Positions 3,460 through 63,177 of a DNA stretch of 64,000 nt are shown here, in pieces. The position numbers were made by a program, and so were the translations under genes. Under the pieces are notes generated by a model that was not told where the DNA came from, made no database searches, and saw nothing but the letters and a program-made list of their open reading frames with translations. Each line of letters starts with the position of its first letter. Within the stretch, counting starts at the first letter, position 1. The stretch comes from a virus: positions 1-64,000 of IMG/VR virus record IMGVR_UViG_3300045976_000117, one strand, 5' to 3'.

Positions 3460-4184
3460 TGTCTTTTGGTGTCTTTCAGTTCCGACGAGGCACGGCAGCG
3501 CAATGGAATTCTGCGAATACTGTTCTTGCGGCTGGCGAACTAGGACTAGAAACAGACACCGCTAAATTCAAGATCGGTGACGGAACCACCGTGTGGAGCT
3601 CGCTTGCTTACGGTGGTCTTCAAGGGCCTCAGGGCATTCAGGGTCCTACCGGAGCCACAGGCCCGCAAGGCACCACCGGAGCAACAGGGCCTCAGGGCCC
3701 GACCGGCGCGACCGGTGCAGGGGTTGCTACTGGCGGCACCACGGGTCAAGCACTGACGAAAAACAGCAGTACCGACTATGACACGGGTTGGTCTTCTGTA
3801 GTTCTCAACGGGTCCACTGCGGGTGGTGCTCTTAACGGCACATATCCTAATCCTAATCTTGATGTCGTCCCTTGGCCACCTGTGGTACTGACCGATCAAG
3901 CCACTATCGTCACGGATGCTTCTCAGGGCAATCTTTTCCGATGCACTCTGACCGCTGATCGCACTTTGGGGACGCCGACCAATCCGACTGATGGTCAAAA
4001 AGTGATGTGGGAGCTGACCGCCAGTGGTGCCAACAGAACACCCACGTTATCCGGTGGTTTTGTTATGGGCACTTCTGGTGTGACTATCTCGGCTATTGCG
4101 TCAGGAACCACAGACTACATCGGGGCTATCTATAACGCCACGGCCGGAGTGTGGCGGGTCATTGCTTACGCGAAGGGGTACTAA
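3459..4184 (+). CDS. Fibre protein with Mtd/hyaluronidase-like N-terminus and collagen repeats
   Basis: [31 protein letters not shown], then (GXY)n. Confidence 0.8.
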
Positions 4185-4724
4185 GTGGCTCTGACTTTGG
4201 ACCAAGGTGCGAAACTTCGCACGGACACATCATTCACAGACCGAATCCGTATGGCGATGATGCGGCAGGCCACCACGGTGGCGAATGAGGCGATCGGCGG
4301 GCAAACAACTACGAGATGGGCTAAACGCACCCAGCTAGCGAACCGGGTGATCACGTCTCCGGATTCGTGGTTGACGATGTTCGTGGCAATGGTCGCGTCG
4401 GATCCGGGTTTGTCGTTGACGTGGTACACCCCAGTCAGTATTTCGTCATCCACGAACGCGAACCCAAGTGTGATCACCACCGCCGCGGCGCACGGGTACT
4501 CCACGGGTGATGTGGTGGAGATCCTGGGCCATGCGGTGAACACGAACGCGAACGGCACGTGGACGATCACCGTGCTCACCACCACCACCTTTTCAATTCC
4601 ACAACCCGCTAATGGTGTGGGCACCACTTCGGGGACTGTTCAGAAGATGGAAACCGACGTGAACTTGAACTTCACTATTCAGAATCAGTGGAATGCGATG
4701 GCAGGGGTGCTCAGTGGTGAATGA
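4185..4724 (+). CDS. Structural protein with FCCH-like beta insert
   Basis: TNANPSVIT..AHGYSTGD.V.I.G...N.NG...ITV...TFS motif. Confidence 0.55.
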   Translation: MALTLDQGAKLRTDTSFTDRIRMAMMRQATTVANEAIGGQTTTRWAKRTQLANRVITSPDSWLTMFVAMVASDPGLSLTWYTPVSISSSTNANPSVITTAAAHGYSTGDVVEILGHAVNTNANGTWTITVLTTTTFSIPQPANGVGTTSGTVQKMETDVNLNFTIQNQWNAMAGVLSGE

Positions 4725-4947
4725 CGAGACCCACCCATTCGTCCCGTTTAAAGTGCCAACTGGGCCTGATGATACCCCGCTGGTGCAATGGGACCGGGAC
4801 AACTACAAGTGCACCGGGTGCGGGGGGCCGGTCCCGGATGGGGTGTGGCTCCACGAAACAGTTGAGGACGGCATGGTTGTTGGTTTGCTGGCCCGTGTGG
4901 GTGCGGACGGCCCGGTTGTGCACCAATGCGGCAAGGCTGGTGAGTAG
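4717..4947 (+). CDS. Small Cys/His-containing hypothetical protein
   Basis: Fills gap with overlapping start/stop; CxxC and HxC. Confidence 0.5.
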   Translation: MNDETHPFVPFKVPTGPDDTPLVQWDRDNYKCTGCGGPVPDGVWLHETVEDGMVVGLLARVGADGPVVHQCGKAGE

Positions 4948-5396
4948 TGGCTAATCAATACGTCATTGCCACCGGATCGGTCACCACGGTCGCCGCGACC
5001 GCGAAGACGTGTATCGAGCTACCGACCGGGGCGACTACCCCCATCATCATTACCGCACTGGAGGTGATGAGCGCGGCCACCGCAGCAGGGACGTTGATCG
5101 TTGAATGGGGAACTTACACGACAACAGGTACAGGAACTACTGTTACCCCCCAGAAATGGGGCCAGGATCAGTCGATTGCCGCGATCGTGGGCACGGTGAA
5201 GATTGCGGACACGGTCGAGCCCACGGGATTCGCGGTCGGTACCCTACCGAACTATGTGATTCCGTTACCCGGCATGTACAGTATTATTTACCCGTTCGGG
5301 CGGGAGTTCTATCAGCCGATTTCGGTTAACCGGGCATTGCGGGTGACATCATCATTAGCGTCTCCGGTTCGCATCAACTTGTATTTCGAGCACTGA
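4947..5396 (+). CDS. Structural protein, paralog of 26203-26703
   Basis: Shared KT...T..T.P, AAGT...E and P.GREF...RVT motifs. Confidence 0.6.
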   Translation: MANQYVIATGSVTTVAATAKTCIELPTGATTPIIITALEVMSAATAAGTLIVEWGTYTTTGTGTTVTPQKWGQDQSIAAIVGTVKIADTVEPTGFAVGTLPNYVIPLPGMYSIIYPFGREFYQPISVNRALRVTSSLASPVRINLYFEH

Positions 5397-6181: not shown

Positions 6182-6333
6182 CAGGAGTATAGATTATGTC
6201 GACCATTAGCCGTGCATATCCACGCGCGACTAGATATAATCCGAGACAGCCTCAGTTTATCCAACCTAAGGTAACGACACCGCCCACTCCTGATCTGACA
6301 GGATTTCTTGCTTTCTTCCGGTGAGGTGACGAC

Positions 6334-7992
6334 ATGCCACGACGTGTCATTACCGCTAAAGAACACGATCGTGATCTGTCGTTAGGTTGGCTACTGCTTT
6401 CATGGATGGAGTATTTCTGTGTCCATGGGCCAGGGGATGTCCAAGGCGAGCCAGTCCGACATGGTGATGAAGTGTCAGGCTTCATTGTCGACTGCTACGC
6501 GTTGGACAACGACGGGCGACGACTGTATGACAGTGCATTCTTTAGTCGCCCTAAAGGGTGTGACAAATCCGGTCTTGGTGGCAGACTTGGACTCGTTGAG
6601 GCTTTTGCACCTTGCCGCTTTCTTTCCTGGGCTGAGGGTGGCGAAATCTATCGAGATCCATGGGGCTTAGGCTTCGAATACGAGTATCAGCCAGGCGAGC
6701 CTATGGGACGACTGGTCAAGGTACCTTACATCCGCTGCCTGGCCACCGAAGAAGGTCAGACCGGGCTTGTCTATGACACGATCTATTTCAACCTCACAGA
6801 GGGCCCGCTCGCGGAGGTTTCTGGCACCAATGCCGGTCTGACTCGCGTGCTCCTGCCTGGTGGTGGAGAGATCACCCCTAGCACCGCGAGCTCGGCATCG
6901 AAAGATGGTGGTAAGGAGACTTTCGTCGTCTTCGATGAGACGCACCTCTACAACTTGCCGGATCTCCGACGCATGTATACCACCGTTACCCGTAATCTTC
7001 GCAAGAGGAAGAAGATAGCGGGCACGTGGTACCTCGAGACGACCACGATGTTTGCCCCCGGTGAAGAATCCGTAGCCGAAGGTACTTATCGACTCTCTGA
7101 GGCAATCGAGGCAGGCAAGGCAAAAAGGGATCGGCTACTGGTTGATCACCGTTGGGGAGAATGCGAGAATCCGGAAAACGAGAGCGAGCTCCGCGCGGGG
7201 ATTATCGAAGCCTATGGCGACGCTATGGCTTGGAACGATCTCAATGGTTTGGTAGACGAGTTCTACGACCCTCGCCAGCACATCATAGATTCTCGCCGGT
7301 ATTTCCTCAACGCGGAAACCGAGCAATCCGACGCATGGATAGCAGCGAGAGAATGGGACCCATGCGCTAATCCTCTGGCTGTCTTGGCTGATGGCGATAT
7401 GATTGCACTCGGTTTCGATGGCTCTATTAGTGAGGATGCCACGGCGTTGGTGGCCTGCCGTATTGATGATGGGCATCTAGAACTTTTAGCGTGTGAGGAA
7501 AAGCCTCTTGATGCTCGTAATACTTGGCAGGTCGATCAAGAAGCCATAGATGCGGTAGTTAAGCAGGCCTTCGACCGATTTAAGGTGGTAGCTTTCTTCG
7601 CGGATCCGCCACACTGGCAAGATTATGTTGATGCATGGACTGCTGAATTTGCTGACGGCCTTGAGGTCAAGTCAAGTCAGGTACACCCCATTGAGTGGTG
7701 GACTAACCGGCCGTCTGCCATGGTGGCTGCTCTTGAGCGGTTCCGTGAGGCAGTAGCTAGTAAGCGGCTTACCCATGACGGTACGACGATCTTTCGACGG
7801 CATGTGCTCAACGCCCGGCGCCGGGTTACCAGGTCGGGTATCACCATTGCCAAGGAGTATCCGGGCAGTCCGAAGAAGATTGACTGTGCCATGGCCGCGG
7901 TGCTGGCTTACGAGGCTCGTGCTGCCGCGGTTGCTGCCGGGGTCGTTCAGCGAGCGAAGAAACCAAGGTCTAAGCGATTGGTGCGGTTCTAG
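6334..7992 (+). CDS. terL: Terminase large subunit
   Basis: Walker A RPKGCDKS, Walker B FVVFDETH, nuclease LGFDGS..DAT and KIDCAMA. Confidence 0.95.
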   Translation: MPRRVITAKEHDRDLSLGWLLLSWMEYFCVHGPGDVQGEPVRHGDEVSGFIVDCYALDNDGRRLYDSAFFSRPKGCDKSGLGGRLGLVEAFAPCRFLSWAEGGEIYRDPWGLGFEYEYQPGEPMGRLVKVPYIRCLATEEGQTGLVYDTIYFNLTEGPLAEVSGTNAGLTRVLLPGGGEITPSTASSASKDGGKETFVVFDETHLYNLPDLRRMYTTVTRNLRKRKKIAGTWYLETTTMFAPGEESVAEGTYRLSEAIEAGKAKRDRLLVDHRWGECENPENESELRAGIIEAYGDAMAWNDLNGLVDEFYDPRQHIIDSRRYFLNAETEQSDAWIAAREWDPCANPLAVLADGDMIALGFDGSISEDATALVACRIDDGHLELLACEEKPLDARNTWQVDQEAIDAVVKQAFDRFKVVAFFADPPHWQDYVDAWTAEFADGLEVKSSQVHPIEWWTNRPSAMVAALERFREAVASKRLTHDGTTIFRRHVLNARRRVTRSGITIAKEYPGSPKKIDCAMAAVLAYEARAAAVAAGVVQRAKKPRSKRLVRF

Positions 7993-15505: not shown

Positions 15506-15596
15506 GGTGGGGCGGTCCCGATGGAGAGACAGCAGTTATCGCCTCCTATGCTCCGGGCGGTATCTGTGTACGTGGGTTCGATTCCCACCCCCACCT
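15506..15596 (+). ncRNA. tRNA-like RNA with elongated anticodon arm
   Basis: Acceptor GGTGGGG/CCCCACC, D arm GTC..GG..GAC, T arm GTGGG-TTCGATT-CCCAC; anticodon arm 4+7 bp with 12-nt loop. Confidence 0.7.
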
Positions 15597-15614
15597 CTTT
15601 GAGAGGTGTACTCA

Positions 15615-42891: not shown

Positions 42892-43284
42892 CTAGGCCGC
42901 GGCAGCCTGCTTGGTCCTCAGGTGCTCGAGAATCTGCGGGTTTTGCGTTCGCCACGCGGTCACAGCGAGCTCCGGCAGGCGACCCCGCTGAGCCAGGCTG
43001 ACGCCATTGGCAGCCGCATACTCGCGTACCGCACTTCGCTCTTCCGGGGTCAGACCGGATCCAGTCGGCGCTGCCGTGGTGGACTTGGCCGGACGGCCAC
43101 GCTTGCCAGTACTGGCCTTGCGACCAGCCTCAACATATCGACCAAGGAAATTCCGAAGCTCGTCCTCCTCCGCAGGAGTCAAGTCGATCTCGTAAGTCAC
43201 CCCCGCAAGACCGAACTCCACATTGCGGGCATCGCCTTCGCCACTGAGATCACTGGCGATCTCTACAGTAACCTTCTGTGCCAT
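42892..43284 (-). CDS. lsr2: Lsr2 nucleoid-associated protein
   Basis: MAQKVTV...DL.G, V.FGL.GVTYEIDL, VRE.A..NG....RGR AT-hook. Confidence 0.93.
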   Translation of the reverse strand: MAQKVTVEIASDLSGEGDARNVEFGLAGVTYEIDLTPAEEDELRNFLGRYVEAGRKASTGKRGRPAKSTTAAPTGSGLTPEERSAVREYAAANGVSLAQRGRLPELAVTAWRTQNPQILEHLRTKQAAAA

Positions 43285-43638: not shown

Positions 43639-44001
43639 TTACTCGTCAGTCGGAGGCTCCACCTCGATCCCTGTTGGGTGGGCCATGCGCCATGCCCGCG
43701 TCTTGATCCGATAGCGCCACTTGCGCCGTTCAGCCGGATCTGTGGGCTCTTCTTCCTGCGTCACATGCAGGCCCACGTTAAGCCACACATCGGAGTTGTC
43801 CGGCTTGAGCAGGCCATACAACTTGTGATAAGCGACTTTCTGAGCACGCTCCAACCAGGCCAACCGCTCTTCGATCGCTCGAGCTGCCTGAACAAAAAGA
43901 TCAATATCGGTCTCTCGGTTGCCGCTGACTTGTTGCCCCAGTACGCGCGACACCACCTCCCCCTCGGTCACCCCATGTGACGTGACTTCCTGATTGCTCA
44001 C
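43639..44001 (-). CDS. Hypothetical protein
   Basis: AGGAGG RBS; divergent from the tra module. Confidence 0.6.
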   Translation of the reverse strand: MSNQEVTSHGVTEGEVVSRVLGQQVSGNRETDIDLFVQAARAIEERLAWLERAQKVAYHKLYGLLKPDNSDVWLNVGLHVTQEEEPTDPAERRKWRYRIKTRAWRMAHPTGIEVEPPTDE

Positions 44002-44200
44002 TGCTGGCGTTCCTCCTGACGGTCTGTCCGATCCTGCCGGACCGGGTTTCAGTTACGTAATTGAAACTGTAGTATGCCGGTCCAAGGTAGTCCTGACTAC
44101 CCCACGGGCGGATGACGGTCCGTCCGTAGGCACCCGGCAGGGTCTTGACTCCGGCCGTGCCGGGTGCCGCCACCAACGGAGTCAGCTAGGCGTAACGAAT

Positions 44201-45070
44201 GTGATCGATCTTGCCGCGGTTCGGAAGACCCAGAGCCAGATTAATGCGGCTATCTGGGGCTGTGCCGGTATCGCCATGTCTGCTTCAGCTATCGCAGGAA
44301 TTACCGGATTTTGGAACCTGCAACACGATGGCTGGGGTCTTGCCTCAGGTCTCACTACTTCGGTAGCCGTGGACACGGCTCTTTGGGTAGCTCTGACCTC
44401 TGATCAACTCATGGAGCGCGCGGGCCTGGCCGCAGACGGGCCTTGGGCTCGCGCCGTACGCTGGGGCACCGCGGTGATGTCGATCTTCCTCAACGTGCTG
44501 GCTGCGGTGCTATCTCCTATCGAAGCCGGTTTCAAATTTCTTCTGATCGTGATTCATGCCTTTGCGCCATTGATCATGGTTGGTTTGGCAGAGCTCCGAA
44601 CGGAGAACGGTCGCAAGCTGGCTGCCAGGGAGCGCGAGGCTCTCGAGCAAGAAGAGGCCCGACGTAGGGCCCTTGATACTCCGATCGTTGCTCCATCCGA
44701 GCGAATCTCACCCCCGGTGCCGATCGTCTCTGTTCCGGACCCCCGGCTGGCCAGTGAGGTTGCCGAACTTCGCGCGGAGCTTGCTCGAGTCAAGACGTTG
44801 ACCCCGGCTCCTCCCACGCCCAAGCCTCCGCAGACGGTAGTGACTCCCTTGCGGCCTGCAACTGAATCCTCAAAAAATCACCGTGGGGCCTCAGTAACCG
44901 ATCGGATCGTTACTTATCTCAACACTCATCACTGTGGGGACCCTTATGGAATCACCGCGGAGATTTTAGCGTCTAAAACTAAACAAAATGTACACACCTG
45001 TAAAAAAGTTCTCACCGATTGGCGTCGGGGGCAAACTGACAAATCACAACGTAGGACGGCGACACCATGA
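44201..45070 (+). CDS. Spd-like (DUF2637-type) membrane protein with coiled coil, Pro-rich linker and C-terminal HTH
   Basis: Four TM with VD and S..LN motifs, H...P...L.E, ATGA-coupled to FtsK gene. Confidence 0.7.
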   Translation: MIDLAAVRKTQSQINAAIWGCAGIAMSASAIAGITGFWNLQHDGWGLASGLTTSVAVDTALWVALTSDQLMERAGLAADGPWARAVRWGTAVMSIFLNVLAAVLSPIEAGFKFLLIVIHAFAPLIMVGLAELRTENGRKLAAREREALEQEEARRRALDTPIVAPSERISPPVPIVSVPDPRLASEVAELRAELARVKTLTPAPPTPKPPQTVVTPLRPATESSKNHRGASVTDRIVTYLNTHHCGDPYGITAEILASKTKQNVHTCKKVLTDWRRGQTDKSQRRTATP

Positions 45071-47220
45071 CTATCACTGATATTTCTCAGCCACCGGAGC
45101 CTGAGAACGAGGAACAACGGCAAAGTGCCATGCGACGGGCCCTCAATCGATGGTTCCGAAGGCCAGAGCCTGAAGACTATGAAGAGGTGACCGGCACTGA
45201 ACTGTCACCATACGTGCCAACACCGCGAGAGCCCGAGCTCGAGCCACTGGCTTGGCTGGAAAAGCACAAGCTCACATTGCCTGACCGGCGACGGGTCAAG
45301 GCTCGAAGCAAGGAAGTAGCCAGGCACCTGCCCGGTATGGCCGTCAAGTTTGCTTTTACCACCCTCCCACGGAGAGCTTGGGACGAAGGCGTAACTCCCG
45401 TCTGGCGTGGTTGCGGCAAATGTGCAATGGCTTACTACAACTGGTTGACCTCCGCCTATCTCGCGGAGGCTCACAAAGACGCCGAAGGCACCCGTAAATC
45501 AGCGATTAACCAGAATAGGCACAAGAGTCATGGCTACAAGCTCTGGGCTTCGGTCTTCGGCGCTTGTACTGCTGCCGGAGGCATGGCCTACCTGTACTTC
45601 TATCATTTTATTCCGTTTCTGGTCGTACTGGGTGTAGTGCTATTTCTTCTCGATGTGCTTGGCCGTGTGGGAGAAGAGAAGAAACAAGAGATTGCTCCGG
45701 TTCACACTCAGCCACTTAGTGAAGGTATGGAGTACGGACAGCTCACCGCGACGATTCAAGCTGGCCTCAATGAGACTATTGGACTGGACAGCGAGGGTAA
45801 GCCACTTGCGCGTGTTTCAGGTCTTGTTACTTATGATTTTGAGCGTGGAGAGTTCCGACAGCCGATCACTACATATCACGACTTCGAAGAAAAACACATT
45901 CGCTATCTAGAACGTCGGGTGGCGGCACGACCCGGCAGCATATTCGTCTTGCAGGAACCGAAAATCTCTACTCAGCGAACCATGGTCATCAAATATCGTG
46001 ACCCGTTCCGAGATGTGCCGTCTGCTCCGTTTATCAAGCCTGGTACGAAATCTATTACCGAGGGTTGTGTTATCGGAGTATCGCAGACTGACCGACAGTT
46101 CCTTGTGCATGTAGCTGGTCTGCATGTTGGCGTGGTGGCCCAGTCGGCAGGTGGCAAGTCCGAAGGGATCATTGCCTCTTTGATCGAGGCTATCCTTGCG
46201 ACACACAATGCTGTGCCGGTTGGCATTGACCTTACCGAAGGACCACTATTTCCAATTTATGAAGGTCTTGTTCAAAAAGTTGCATACACTCCCAAAGATG
46301 CGGAGGAACTTCTCGGTTGGCTGATAGATGAAAAAAGTCGTAGAGCTAAAATTTTGCAGAATATTGCTCGCAGTGATGATCCGAACGTCAAGGGCCGTGA
46401 GTGGAACGCAGATCTCGCGGCGCTGTATAACGCTCCGAGCATCCATGTCATTATCGATGAATTAGCAATGACAACAAAATTCGATGGTAAGGGCGGCAGT
46501 ATTAATCTGCGGGCACCGATCGAAGAGCTCGCCCGTACCGGGTCCAAGCACTGGATCACTCTTATCACTGGCCAGCAGAAGACCGGTAACAATGACGCAG
46601 GTTCTACTGGTATCACCGACAACATGCACGTCTGGCTAGTAGGTCCTTGCTCCCCAGATGACGCTAATGCAATCTTCACCGCGGAGGGGCGTAAGCAGGG
46701 ATATGCACCTAACTTGCTGAAGTCGGCAGAACGGGGCAAGTCTCCTAATGATGCTGGTCGATGCTATGTCAAGGCTCCCGGCTATGGCCCGGACGTGTAT
46801 TGCTCCTATCGGCCGATGCCGGAAGACGAACTCAAGCGTCGCCGCAAGATGCGCCTTGAAATCGGAATACCGATGTTAAAACACTGTGGTGAAGATGATA
46901 ATGATGAAATTATGGAGGCTGAGGTGGTTCCAAGCAGGCCAGTGCTCGAGGCTCTCGCGGCAGCCTTCGAAGATATTAATCCGCCGGACGGCAGATTGCC
47001 GAGTGCTTTGGCTGCTCAATGGATCAGTGAAAGGACCGATATGGAATTTACTCAAGAATCTCTGGCCGCTGCTCTAAAGAAGGAGCTCGGTGATGACCGG
47101 GCACCGCGGACGTACAGCAACCGGTGCAAGATCGTGAAGATCCTTAATCCGGAGGCTGAGAACACCAACCGCAAGTACTACGCACATGCGGACATTTCGA
47201 GCCTCATGGCGGGGGTGTGA
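45067..47220 (+). CDS. traB: TraB-like FtsK/SpoIIIE DNA translocase
   Basis: Two N-terminal TM; Walker A AQSAGGKS; ID motif; E..RR; Walker B VIIDELA; LITGQQK; G.CY; C-terminal wHTH ending T.ESLAAALK. Confidence 0.8.
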   Translation: MTITDISQPPEPENEEQRQSAMRRALNRWFRRPEPEDYEEVTGTELSPYVPTPREPELEPLAWLEKHKLTLPDRRRVKARSKEVARHLPGMAVKFAFTTLPRRAWDEGVTPVWRGCGKCAMAYYNWLTSAYLAEAHKDAEGTRKSAINQNRHKSHGYKLWASVFGACTAAGGMAYLYFYHFIPFLVVLGVVLFLLDVLGRVGEEKKQEIAPVHTQPLSEGMEYGQLTATIQAGLNETIGLDSEGKPLARVSGLVTYDFERGEFRQPITTYHDFEEKHIRYLERRVAARPGSIFVLQEPKISTQRTMVIKYRDPFRDVPSAPFIKPGTKSITEGCVIGVSQTDRQFLVHVAGLHVGVVAQSAGGKSEGIIASLIEAILATHNAVPVGIDLTEGPLFPIYEGLVQKVAYTPKDAEELLGWLIDEKSRRAKILQNIARSDDPNVKGREWNADLAALYNAPSIHVIIDELAMTTKFDGKGGSINLRAPIEELARTGSKHWITLITGQQKTGNNDAGSTGITDNMHVWLVGPCSPDDANAIFTAEGRKQGYAPNLLKSAERGKSPNDAGRCYVKAPGYGPDVYCSYRPMPEDELKRRRKMRLEIGIPMLKHCGEDDNDEIMEAEVVPSRPVLEALAAAFEDINPPDGRLPSALAAQWISERTDMEFTQESLAAALKKELGDDRAPRTYSNRCKIVKILNPEAENTNRKYYAHADISSLMAGV

Positions 47221-47410
47221 GGGGGCTACGAGGGGGTCAACTGTTGCGGGTCTGTTGCGCAACATCAGGTGCCCTGTTGACCCTCTCTGTCAACCCCCTG
47301 GCTACATGGTCATACCTCCCGATTGTCCGGGTATCCGAGCGCGTACTCCAGTGCGCATCCGCAGGTACTGACCGGGTACTCACGCGAGTACTCAGGGGAG
47401 GTGAGTACCC

Positions 47411-47620
47411 GTGGGCATTGCACTTCTGATACTCGTGGGAGTACTCGCGGTTTGGGCGCGTCATTGCTGGCGTTGGCCCTATGTGACCTGCAAACATTGC
47501 GAGGGCAAGAAGCGTGAGTACTCGTCGGACGGCGCGTACTTCCGAGACTCTGAGTGCGCGTTCTGCCTCACCAACGGGTATCGGTACCGGTGGGAGCTTC
47601 GATGGCTGACCCTGCTGTGA
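47411..47620 (+). CDS. Small membrane-anchored zinc-finger protein (AICE-type)
   Basis: GGAGGTG RBS; TM then WP...CxxCxG...F...CxxC...G.R.R. Confidence 0.7.
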   Translation: MGIALLILVGVLAVWARHCWRWPYVTCKHCEGKKREYSSDGAYFRDSECAFCLTNGYRYRWELRWLTLL

Positions 47621-47640
47621 GTACCCGCAACATCGCTGAC

Positions 47641-47698
47641 CTGTCCAGCTTGACAGGGGTCATCTGTCCGGGTACTTTGTGCCTAGGAACTTAGGCAG
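47641..47698 (+). promoter_or_regulatory. Rightward promoter with operator A over -35 and operator B downstream of -10
   Basis: TTGACA(47650)-N17-TACTTT; CTGTCCAGCTTGACAG; GTGCCTAGGAACTTAGGCAG. Confidence 0.78.
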
Positions 47699-47713
47699 TT
47701 GAGAGGTAGAAAG

Positions 47714-48014
47714 ATGAGTACTCGGAAAAGTGTCAAATCGACCCATGCGGGGACTTGTTCGCAGCGTCTGCAAGATCGTACGCAATGGGTCCGAAACACC
47801 GGACAGAAGGCCGGACAGTTTGGGGCTGTAGGGCTGTTTACTTTGACTCTGGCGGGCTGTGGTGGCCATGCATTCCTCGACAACAGCCCGACCTGCGGCT
47901 GGTGGATGGTACGGCGTCACCCATGTCAACGTGGACGGCAAAATGGTTCCGTGCGTGACTTGGAAAAATGGCCACGCGGGCGGAATCAGTTGTGATTTTG
48001 CGGGGTCGAAGTGA
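47714..48014 (+). pseudogene. Frameshifted lipoprotein gene
   Basis: Lipobox LAGC in one frame; VPCVTWKNGHAGGISCDF in the +1 frame; junction at CATGCAT near 47867. Confidence 0.6.
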
Positions 48015-49114: not shown

Positions 49115-50125
49115 ATGATGGGCCACGGACACACCTCGTTTAACCTGGTTAACGGCCTGGCATTGGGTGATGCACTTGCCCTGCCTCCGTTAGTCACTCT
49201 CACCATGGGCGTGTGTCTTGCTGGCGCCGGAACACTGCCAGACATTGACTGCCATGGATCGACAGCCAGCACAGCGTTCGGACCTTTCTCCGATGCTGTT
49301 CACCATGCGTCGAAGCATTTACATCACATGGTTGCTGCGTCCCTGTACTCCGAACATGATTTCGAGAATGGGCACAGTGAGCACCGCGGGTTGACGCACT
49401 GGTGGCCGTTCTGGATTGTCTGCGGGGGCGGGGTAGAGATTGGCTGCCTCACCGTTGGGCGATGGTTCGTTATGGGAGTCATTGCCATACTCTTCGCGCT
49501 GGCCGCGCGGGGACTTTCTATTCCGGACGTGCCAACTGAGCGACAAGATCGGTTTCTTGACTCACTCAAACATGAATTTGCGATGCGCTGGGCTTACCGA
49601 CTTCTACTCCTGTGCCCGTTCACGTGGTGCATGCGACTTTTGAACAAACGGGTACGTCGCACTCGCCGTTACACCTTGTTCAGTATCTTCAGTCATGACT
49701 TCGGTTTCCGATTCGGAATCGGTAAAGTAGTCACCCTGGGAGTCTCGGTACTGATTTCATATGCTCTTGTGACTCAGGGAGTGGCGTCCACCATTGGCCC
49801 CTGGCTTGGCCTTATTGTCTTCGCGGGTATGCTCCTTCACTGGCTAGGTGACTCACCTACGCACATGGGCGTGCCCGGTTTTCTGCTTCACCACAAGTGG
49901 AAGCTGCCGTTTTGGGCCAGCTTCTACGCGGGCGGTCCTTTCGAGGTTGCGGTGATCTGGTTCTGCCTTGGATGGCTCAACCTTCTTCTGATTCCTGGTC
50001 TTGCGCCACGGTGGCTCGAGATGGATGTCATCACCTGGGGCGGTTTGTTCTTAGGACTAATAATTTTGTTGGCCATCATTGTGGAAGGCACACAACGAAC
50101 GAAACAGAGGAGGTATGCAACATGA
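49115..50125 (+). CDS. Metal-dependent membrane hydrolase (YdjM/DUF457-like)
   Basis: GH.H, LPDID, HRGLTH, H.LGD..T..GVP. Confidence 0.85.
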   Translation: MMGHGHTSFNLVNGLALGDALALPPLVTLTMGVCLAGAGTLPDIDCHGSTASTAFGPFSDAVHHASKHLHHMVAASLYSEHDFENGHSEHRGLTHWWPFWIVCGGGVEIGCLTVGRWFVMGVIAILFALAARGLSIPDVPTERQDRFLDSLKHEFAMRWAYRLLLLCPFTWCMRLLNKRVRRTRRYTLFSIFSHDFGFRFGIGKVVTLGVSVLISYALVTQGVASTIGPWLGLIVFAGMLLHWLGDSPTHMGVPGFLLHHKWKLPFWASFYAGGPFEVAVIWFCLGWLNLLLIPGLAPRWLEMDVITWGGLFLGLIILLAIIVEGTQRTKQRRYAT

Positions 50126-62643: not shown

Positions 62644-63177
62644 TCACTGACCACTTCCTAAATGTGCTAATTCTTTAGCTAGTTGTTTGTAACTACGTCG
62701 TTTCACCGCGTTGACACAGTAACCAAATTCTTGGACGATATCCTTATGGTCCATACCAGCCCAAAATTTAAGAAAAATATATTTGCGATAAGTAGGAATG
62801 AGATTATTCACCGTGGCTGCTATTTCCCCATGGTGATAAGCCATCTCTACTTCATCTAATGCCGCGGCTCTGCCCAGAATATCCTCAACAAATTCGGGCA
62901 CTAAATCAAACGATACCGTGTCATAAGATGACCGGCTCTGAGTTTGGTCCTTTCGGATGACATCTAGCATGGCGTACTCAGCCTTGCGTTTGAGCCATGT
63001 GTCTAATGAACATCCTTTGCCGTCTTCCCATGTCGGAATAGCTCGCCATATTGCAATCCATCCTTCTTGAGCTAGATCCTCAGCACGGGATAAGTTCTGT
63101 TTACACATTGATCTAGCAACTTTTCGAAGCCATGGCCGGTACTTTTGTAACAACTCTTTTTGCTCTTGTTCGGTCAC
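62644..63177 (-). CDS. Sigma-70 family (ECF-like) RNA polymerase sigma factor
   Basis: Region 2 AEDLAQEG.IA.W.A; region 4 L....R.......G....I...G. Confidence 0.85.
   Translation of the reverse strand: MTEQEQKELLQKYRPWLRKVARSMCKQNLSRAEDLAQEGWIAIWRAIPTWEDGKGCSLDTWLKRKAEYAMLDVIRKDQTQSRSSYDTVSFDLVPEFVEDILGRAAALDEVEMAYHHGEIAATVNNLIPTYRKYIFLKFWAGMDHKDIVQEFGYCVNAVKRRSYKQLAKELAHLGSGQ

Follow-up and report, generated by a model that had tools for sequence, protein, structure and literature searches.

A cluster of short GTAC-centred repeats just past the gene for a TraB/FtsK-like translocase of double-stranded DNA (dsDNA) may be the docking site of that translocase on phage DNA, similar to the cis-acting loci of transfer (clt) and TraB recognition sequences (TRS) of Streptomyces plasmids. 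The cluster lies in a 64,000-nucleotide window, the whole stretch of DNA analysed here, which comprises bases 1-64000 of the 74,298-bp IMG/VR virus record IMGVR_UViG_3300045976_000117 (classed as linear, about 78% complete). Below, the translocase (717 aa; 45067..47220, + strand) is called the pump, the cluster the array, and the short sequence repeated in it the word. We give this reading, in which the array would be a clt/TRS-like docking site for the phage's own TraB-type translocase, a probability of about 0.5; it rests on the position of the array, its architecture and the covariation of word and pump in four genomes.

The repeat cluster past the translocase gene

The repeat cluster is real. 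A sequence-only reading of the window had described it as an array of GAGTACYC 8-mers, and every site named there is in place: GAGTACTC at 47386, 47439, 47516 and 47716, GAGTACCC at 47403 and 47619, GGGTACTC at 47374, a weak site GCGTACTC (47341..47348, + strand), and the degenerate sites GGGTATCC at 47329 and TGATACTC at 47428. The same reading placed the array directly 3' of the translocase gene, which is borne out by the pump stop at 47220 and the first sites at 47329 and 47341, an onset some 110-120 bp later. The strong sites span 47373-47724, and copies do fall inside the coding sequence (CDS) of a small gene at 47411-47620, as had been noted. The bracketing 10-bp inverted repeat (47242-47251 and 47623-47632) is 100% complementary, and the hairpin preceding the array has arms at 47230-47241 and 47276-47287 that match at 92%. 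The count of twelve GTAC-centred sites needs qualification: twelve GTACs lie between 47341 and 47716, but the robust set is only about eight sites, not 12-14, because three of the looser sites are otherwise explained. The one at 47582 (GGTACC) is part of R-Y-R codons kept in all relatives, and those at 47670 and 47329 fall on a -10-like box (TGTCCGG-GTAnnn) that is kept in relatives.

The local enrichment proposed as a check was found. GAGTACYC gave 15 strand-matches in the window against 3.0 +/- 2.1 in shuffled sequences, and none of 100 shuffles reached 15. Over the whole record GRGTACYC occurs at 11 distinct sites, seven of which lie within 47374-47723, and the density of GTAC reaches its genome maximum at the array (13 per 500 bp, mean 2.1). 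In an unbiased scan of the genome for clustered 7-mers AGTACTC ranked second, with 8 of its 17 copies in the cluster (Poisson p 3e-13). Coding sequence was treated separately: with the protein held fixed and synonymous codons drawn at the codon usage of the genome, 0.20 GRGTACYC copies would be expected in the small CDS, which holds two (P = 0.0025).

Orientation of the sites

With flanks included, the unit is an asymmetric 10-mer, CGRGTACTCA, and six of the seven copies in the genome are in the array. Its copies stand head-to-head, two forward followed by four exact reverse copies and one reverse copy at 9/10. The forward copies are CGGGTACTCA at 47373..47382 and CGAGTACTCA at 47385..47394 (both + strand), the latter with a palindromic 8-bp core. 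The reverse copies (- strand) begin with CGGGTACTCA at 47402..47411, which abuts the GTG start of the small gene (inverted repeat I6), and continue with the 9/10 match CGAGTACTCC at 47438..47447, written into G-V-L codons (GGA GTA CTC), and with CGAGTACTCA at 47515..47524, a lineage-specific copy in R-E-Y-S codons. They end with CGGGTACTCA at 47618..47627, whose TGA is the stop of the small gene and which has an orthologous reverse copy in the relatives, and CGAGTACTCA at 47715..47724, which overlaps the ATG of the next gene. The point at which the orientation switches is the ribosome-binding site (RBS) of the small gene, and three of the reverse copies supply or adjoin a start or stop codon.

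These orientations change what can be said about the palindromic core. The 8-bp core is indeed a palindrome, but with its flanks it is a polar 10-mer, and the words of the relatives are clearly non-palindromic. The proposal that a palindrome would permit loading in either direction was not upheld, since what the array holds instead is polar 10-mers placed head-to-head. The palindrome seems to have come about incidentally, through a G-to-A change with respect to the word of one relative (L009, below). Arrays in two orientations appear normal at this position because two Streptomyces plasmids, pFP1 and pRVR1, have the same forward-then-reverse layout and the relatives' words are non-palindromic. 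We also considered helical phasing of the sites and dropped it: three double sites of the window have internal spacings of 11-12 bp, which the relatives do not keep.

The same layout with other words in related phages

Public metagenomes yielded 14 homologues of the pump (P0001-P0014, 39-69% identity). Searches of viral contigs with P0003, P0012 and the window protein singly gave no match, nor did two scans of genome contigs, and alignment of the small protein returned only the two viral loci already known. For comparison we used three loci whose pumps are 51-53% identical to that of the window (L007, L008 and L009) and two distant ones, L010 (31%) and L017 (43% to the pump of L010).

The three closer loci have the layout of the window: pump gene, array, small gene for a transmembrane (TM)/zinc-ribbon protein, and conserved promoter. 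Their words are different. In L007 the word is GGGGTCAT, with 6 of the 8 copies of its 40-kb record in the array; L008 has the same word, with 3 of the 6 copies of its record in the array; and in L009 all six copies of GGGGTAYT in the 11.4-kb locus are in the array. A cross-count matrix over the four loci showed every array to be enriched in its own word alone. At the same time the site offsets from the start of the small gene match between genomes (about -40 to -6, +15 to +28, +40 to +43, +206 to +209 in reverse, and about +300). Where the array runs through coding sequence, the G-V-L codons read GGA GTA CTC in the window, GGG GTA CTC in L009 and GGG GTC TTG in L007. There are also lineage-specific coding copies, one at +105 in K-R-E-Y-S in the window and one at +90 in E-G-V-K in L007; the latter alters the protein, which has E-G-V-K in place of E-G-K-K. 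From these alignments, copy number is kept and the exact sites are not. Since each array has its own word while position and density are kept, the word has been replaced in concert at many sites, the pattern that a co-evolving specific reader would produce.

The translocase and its C-terminal domain

Structure models and motifs describe the pump as a membrane-anchored ATPase of the FtsK fold with a predicted C-terminal winged helix. It matched PHROG 12531 (FtsK/SpoIIIE-like, 4e-11), and Foldseek placed its fold with the FtsK motor 2iut (E 2e-15) and also with 6t8b and TcpA; the Pfam FtsK_SpoIIIE match stayed under the cut-off (17.4 vs 24 bits). The Walker A motif is GGGKS, with G363-K364 invariant, the Walker B motif is VIIDE at 461, and a hydrophobic stretch at residues 172-204 (Kyte-Doolittle score 2.67) would be the membrane anchor. 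Compared by tblastn with the Tra proteins of 17 Streptomyces plasmids, the pump showed 25-27% identity over the motor only (E 3e-12 to 5e-4), and FtsK-like proteins of Streptomyces phages were as low in similarity to it as the plasmid Tra proteins. These two groups, of which the plasmid proteins are uncharacterised, hold its nearest named relatives.

The C-terminal winged-helix domain comprises residues 625-716 (46939..47214, + strand), with helix 3 at residues 663-674. AlphaFold models gave it the topology H1-b-H2-H3-b-b-H at a predicted local distance difference test (pLDDT) score of about 73-88. Its structural neighbours by VIA-align were mostly winged helices at middling scores (Z 5-6.6). 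FtsK gamma as its closest fold was rejected: it is not among the matches listed, which is no evidence that the folds differ. The pump has no FtsK_gamma match in Pfam.

Candidate readers of the word

It had been suggested that homologous modules might carry different words that covary with the recognition helix of the winged helix-turn-helix (HTH), and this is what we observed in the window, L007, L008 and L009. L007 and L008 have the same word, a near-identical helix 3 and wing, and C-terminal domains that are 85% identical. Helix 3 and wing differ between motif classes. Among the 14 homologues, helix 3 reads ..LAAALK/R.. in P0001-P0003 and DATELAKRLR in P0004-P0006 and P0010. L009 has a pump body that is nearer to L007/L008 (64%) than to the window (53%) while its C-terminal domain is equidistant (52-58% to L007/L008 vs 54% to the window); it has the helix-3 signature TQ..L...LKK in common with the window, and the two words are one base apart. 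The four arrays thus form a natural specificity series, GGGGTCAT, GGGGTAYT and GRGTACTC, each with defined changes in helix 3 and wing.

The HTH of the protein encoded upstream of the pump (the 44201 protein) had been put forward as a second candidate reader. It is a poor one: L007 and L009 have different words and yet nearly the same HTH helix, HTCKKLLxEWR. The small protein's zinc ribbon is well conserved too, and its differences do not sort by word. In these sequences the word appears to track helix 3 of the pump's winged helix and not the HTH of the upstream protein, and we infer that the tail of the pump is the reader of the array.

Distant modules and plasmids

Clusters of short words also occur near more distant pump genes. 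In L010, six + strand copies of GGTCTCC (4041-4730) begin at the 3' end of the pump gene and continue into the YdjM-like gene that follows; the 10-kb locus has three more copies, each of them on the - strand. This locus has no zinc-ribbon gene next to the pump gene; its zinc-ribbon gene is 1.7 kb off. L017, which encodes a pump of 710 aa on a 69-kb viral contig, has copies of CCGGCACA in both orientations at 6244-6336, including a 12-bp palindrome, TGTGCCGGCACA. In the plasmid pFP1 (L015), CTCTAC occurs four times forward and then three times in reverse right after the Tra stop (4338-4456), bracketed by a perfect 21-bp inverted repeat, and in pRVR1 (L016) CGGAACC is arranged in the same manner, four forward and three reverse right after the Tra stop (4887-5024). 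The Tra proteins of both plasmids have an FtsK_gamma domain at the N-terminus. Going by position and arrangement, we take the two plasmid arrays as candidate clt loci.

Proposed function and alternative explanations

If the array is a docking site, the polar 10-mers (CGRGTACTCA, core GRGTACYC) within about 400 bp past the pump gene would be bound by the C-terminal winged helices of the pump. A membrane-anchored hexameric ring would assemble on the phage dsDNA at the array, and with the neighbouring small membrane proteins it would move phage DNA through a septum or cell contact. The outcome would presumably be virion-independent spread of phage DNA, by which the genome may also pass naked from one cell to another. 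More tentatively, and in our judgement somewhat doubtfully, a non-integrating, apparently lytic phage could be using a full TraB/clt/Spd-like cassette to pump its own genome out of an infected cell or compartment into neighbours without virions, with the head-to-head array as a bidirectional loading site. Starting from a central point, pump rings could then act on the linear, terminally redundant genome in either direction.

Tailed phages of filamentous actinomycetes would, if the pump reads the array, gain a second, receptor-independent route of spread, with DNA pumped through septa or where hyphae touch. Consequences would follow for phage defence, for the plaque biology of mycelial hosts and for the exchange of genes between phages and conjugative plasmids. 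The four-array series offers a direct test of the code by which TraB-type winged helices recognise their sites.

Several observations weigh against a docking site. The covariation comes from four close genomes with phylogeny only partly controlled, and the C-terminal domain resembles generic winged helices at Z 5-6.6 and not FtsK gamma specifically. In L017 the cluster is 360 bp past the pump gene and just upstream of the YdjM-like gene, the plasmid arrays of pFP1 and pRVR1 are themselves only candidate clt loci, and the FtsK-like gene of phage Tomas has no word cluster nearby. Finally, the sites in the window overlap a putative promoter, the RBS and downstream start and stop codons, as operators would. 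The array might accordingly consist of operators through which a transcription regulator (kor/TraR-like or another phage repressor) controls the small gene and the membrane-protein operon past it, with the pump not the reader. There are sites on either side of the RBS and over the start codons of both the small gene and the one after it, a TGTCCGG/-10-like box lies at the 5' edge of the array, the L017 cluster with its perfect 12-bp palindrome is directly upstream of the YdjM-like gene, and TraR of pSVH1 binds repeats upstream of the spd operon (PMC4447253). However, a gene for a GntR-type or other regulator was not found in the module, and the only HTH nearby, that of the upstream protein, does not change along with the word. 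Copies that reach 300 bp into and past the CDS, with lineage-specific coding copies maintained, would also be unusual for operators, and the conserved promoter past the small gene has a different palindrome of its own. We consider operators an unlikely explanation.

A reader encoded within the array is less likely still. The small TM/zinc-ribbon protein could bind the sites in parallel to SpdA2, a small zinc-finger protein with palindromic sites in and just upstream of its own gene (PMC4170104), and the array is indeed centred on the small gene, with copies in its CDS. Yet a TM helix lies at the N-terminus of the small protein, similarity to SpdA or RRQRL zinc proteins could not be detected, and the ribbon does not vary with the word. 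Besides, the sps sites of SpdA2 are conserved across plasmids while the array word changes between relatives, and L010 has a downstream cluster though its zinc-ribbon gene lies elsewhere. A role as replication-origin iterons, or as a parS-like partition site, seems very improbable. Short repeats in both orientations are typical of iterons, such as the pWTY27 iteron, and an iteron-type replication locus has been reported for pFP1 (PMC3583192); but the replication genes (exonuclease, helicase-primase and DNA polymerase) are 16-26 kb away, the array region is not AT-rich (GC 0.57), the module genes examined yielded no Rep or Par gene, and even in distant relatives the cluster goes with the pump gene. 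We can hardly credit a functionless cluster arising from chance or codon usage. Codon usage in the genome is fairly even, with GTA and CTC not rare, but the array count was reached in none of the 100 shuffles, the clustering p is about 3e-13, the coding excess has P = 0.0025, and clusters with a word of their own lie at the same position in three relatives.

Neighbouring genes and elements

Upstream of the pump gene, and with a stop that overlaps its ATG, is the gene for a multi-TM protein with a C-terminal HTH-like tail (43994..45070, + strand; the true start is likely near 44201). It is kept in L007, L008 and L009 at 39-49% identity. Only weak hints of KfrA_N and DUF2637 were obtained for its family, and an assignment to DUF2637 was discarded: there is no Pfam match, BLASTP against the DUF2637 protein of pRVR1 gave E 1.8, and only the L010 homologue has a sub-threshold match. 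Further upstream, about 0.7-0.9 kb before the pump module, lies a gene for an Lsr2-like protein (dimerisation domain 1.7e-18; 42892-43284, - strand), which is kept in L008 and L009.

Just past the pump stop is the imperfect hairpin (47230..47287, strand unassigned; inverted repeat I5). We rejected it as a terminator, as there is no U-tract and the RNA fold has z = -1.97; Rfam gave only chance-level rows (E > 0.5). A TGTCCGGGTATCC box at 47324..47338 (+ strand) is a possible weak promoter -10 region and overlaps the first degenerate copy of the motif. Its TGTCCGG columns are invariant in four loci (alignment A4), and in the conserved downstream promoter the spacer and -10 are made up of this box as well. 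TGTCCGG therefore occurs both at the 5' edge of the array (47324-47338) and in that promoter (47664-47678), and may be an extended promoter element; possibly it serves the phage's own sigma factor (62644-63177, minus strand).

The small gene (47411..47620, + strand) encodes 69 aa with one N-terminal TM helix and a C-terminal CxxC-N18-CxxC zinc ribbon, and its product is 57-64% identical in L007, L008 and L009. It has no family match in NCBIfam, in Pfam it has only a sub-threshold match to GRXCR1-2_C (18.3 bits vs a cut-off of 26), and as an RRQRL zinc protein it was rejected for want of a match. Past it, at 47649..47700 (+ strand), is the conserved promoter, a strongly conserved promoter-like element made up of CTTGACAGG, a spacer, TGTCCGG and TAnnnT, with a CCTAGG-type palindrome after it and invariant columns in alignment A4. 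It recurs at 3567-3620 in L007, at 8502-8555 in L008 and at 8536-8590 in L009, where the palindrome is GTACTAGGAAGCTAGTAC. Promoter and palindrome are conserved while the array word changes; this is a regulatory element separate from the array, and its palindrome is probably the operator of a different regulator. The word type of L007 and L008 is present twice in the window, as GGGGTCAA at 47233-47240 in the hairpin and as GGGGTCAT at 47656-47663 in the promoter spacer; these copies may be relics of an older word or sites of a second reader.

Further small membrane proteins are encoded past the conserved promoter. A YdjM-like membrane hydrolase (49115..50125, + strand; Pfam YdjM 1e-7) is a conserved member of the module, and its homologues come after the pump gene in L010 and L017.

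The phage genome

The record is that of a tailed phage whose host is of the actinomycete type. Its left arm is a long run of same-strand open reading frames (ORFs), including one of 1474 aa, and the genome encodes an endolysin, a holin, a polynucleotide kinase, a sigma factor and endonuclease VII. Genes for the exonuclease, helicase-primase and DNA polymerase are at 63.7-73.6 kb of the record. The genome has a GC content of about 0.53, and across this phage and its relatives GC is about 53-57%. One relative, G002, is a complete 95.8-kb phage with direct terminal repeats. Neither integrase nor Par genes were seen among the ORFs examined. Because the record carries tailed-phage genes and G002 is a complete phage, "traB" is a phage gene here, and the element is neither a plasmid nor an actinomycete integrative and conjugative element.

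A few further observations concern repeats and RNA elsewhere in the genome. The top local k-mer cluster is GCTGGTA/ACCAGCC, with 8-9 copies in 450 bp at 64551-65000 (partly past the window; about 1550-2000 in L013); it sits within a minus-strand 428-aa ORF (63702-64988) and is probably a coding repeat. A family of 20-bp palindromes, GTACMT-N8-AKGTAC, that had been described in an earlier note proved not to be enriched: allowing up to two mismatches there are 7 matches against 5.4 expected, and 7 or more turned up in 31 of 100 shuffles. In four copies there is no more than one mismatch (window 8537, 33549, 36140 and 42756), and no copy was found at 47679. ARAGORN called an overlong, 92-nt "tRNA-Asp (atc)" at window 15506-15597, which is a tRNA-like element with a long anticodon arm noted earlier.

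Comparison with known systems

The clt regions of Streptomyces plasmids contain short repeats, to which the cognate TraB binds with helix alpha-3 of its winged HTH (PMC4447253, PMC3583192). In pWTY27 the clt takes in 16 bp within traA and 159 bp next to it; it has four 7-mers as well as inverted repeats and is footprinted by TraA (PMC3583192). Like the array, it begins at the 3' end of its translocase gene or just past it; both contain a 7-8-bp word in several copies, along with inverted repeats, over some 175 bp or more, and both adjoin the gene of a membrane-anchored FtsK-like pump. The array differs in that it is carried by a tailed phage, is longer (about 400 bp), runs through a small gene and uses another word. 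Single-polarity direct repeats have been taken as a mark of clt/TRS, whereas the array has two to four forward copies and five reverse ones. Inverted repeats are found in the characterised clt loci of pWTY27, pIJ101 and pJV1 as well (PMC3583192), so single polarity does not strictly define a clt.

The clt/TRS of pSVH1, with 8-bp repeats that are read by helix alpha-3 of the TraB C-terminal winged HTH (as cited in PMC4447253 and PMC3583192), resembles the array in a word of the 8-bp class, a C-terminal winged helix on the pump and a helix 3 that varies with the word; the TRS are direct repeats, whereas the array consists of head-to-head polar 10-mers, and the window pump is only 25-27% identical, in the motor domain, to Streptomyces plasmid Tra proteins. 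The FtsK gamma/KOPS (FtsK orienting polar sequences) system likewise combines an FtsK-fold motor, a winged-helix reader, a polar 8-bp word and a change of orientation at a defined point, but KOPS are spread over the whole chromosome and the window word forms one local cluster. A further likeness is to SpdA2 of pIJ101, which binds sps palindromes inside its own gene and affects plasmid stability (PMC4170104): in both cases short palindromic sites lie in and around a small zinc-protein gene of a conjugation or spread module. The sps site is a conserved 12-bp palindrome in 1-3 copies, however, while the array has at least eight copies of a lineage-specific word, and SpdA is a DNA-binding protein with an N-terminal zinc finger, whereas the small protein of the window is membrane-anchored, has its ribbon at the C-terminus and is unrelated in sequence.

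Phages with comparable genes have been described. Several papers on Streptomyces phages report FtsK-like genes and leave them unexplained or consider them possibly for replication (PMC11536984; bioRxiv 10.1101/2024.02.16.580700). The plasmid-phage pZL12/phiZL12 of Streptomyces has a tra gene needed for conjugal transfer and provides a precedent as a virion-forming actinomycete element with such a gene (Zhong et al. 2010, cited in PMC3583192, PMC7157519 and PMC4487206). It is a high-GC plasmid-prophage with ParAB, whereas the window family has about 53-57% GC and includes, in G002, a complete member with direct terminal repeats. On the best reading, the phage-borne array would be a docking site of the known clt/TRS type, with the plasmid-phage pZL12 as precedent.

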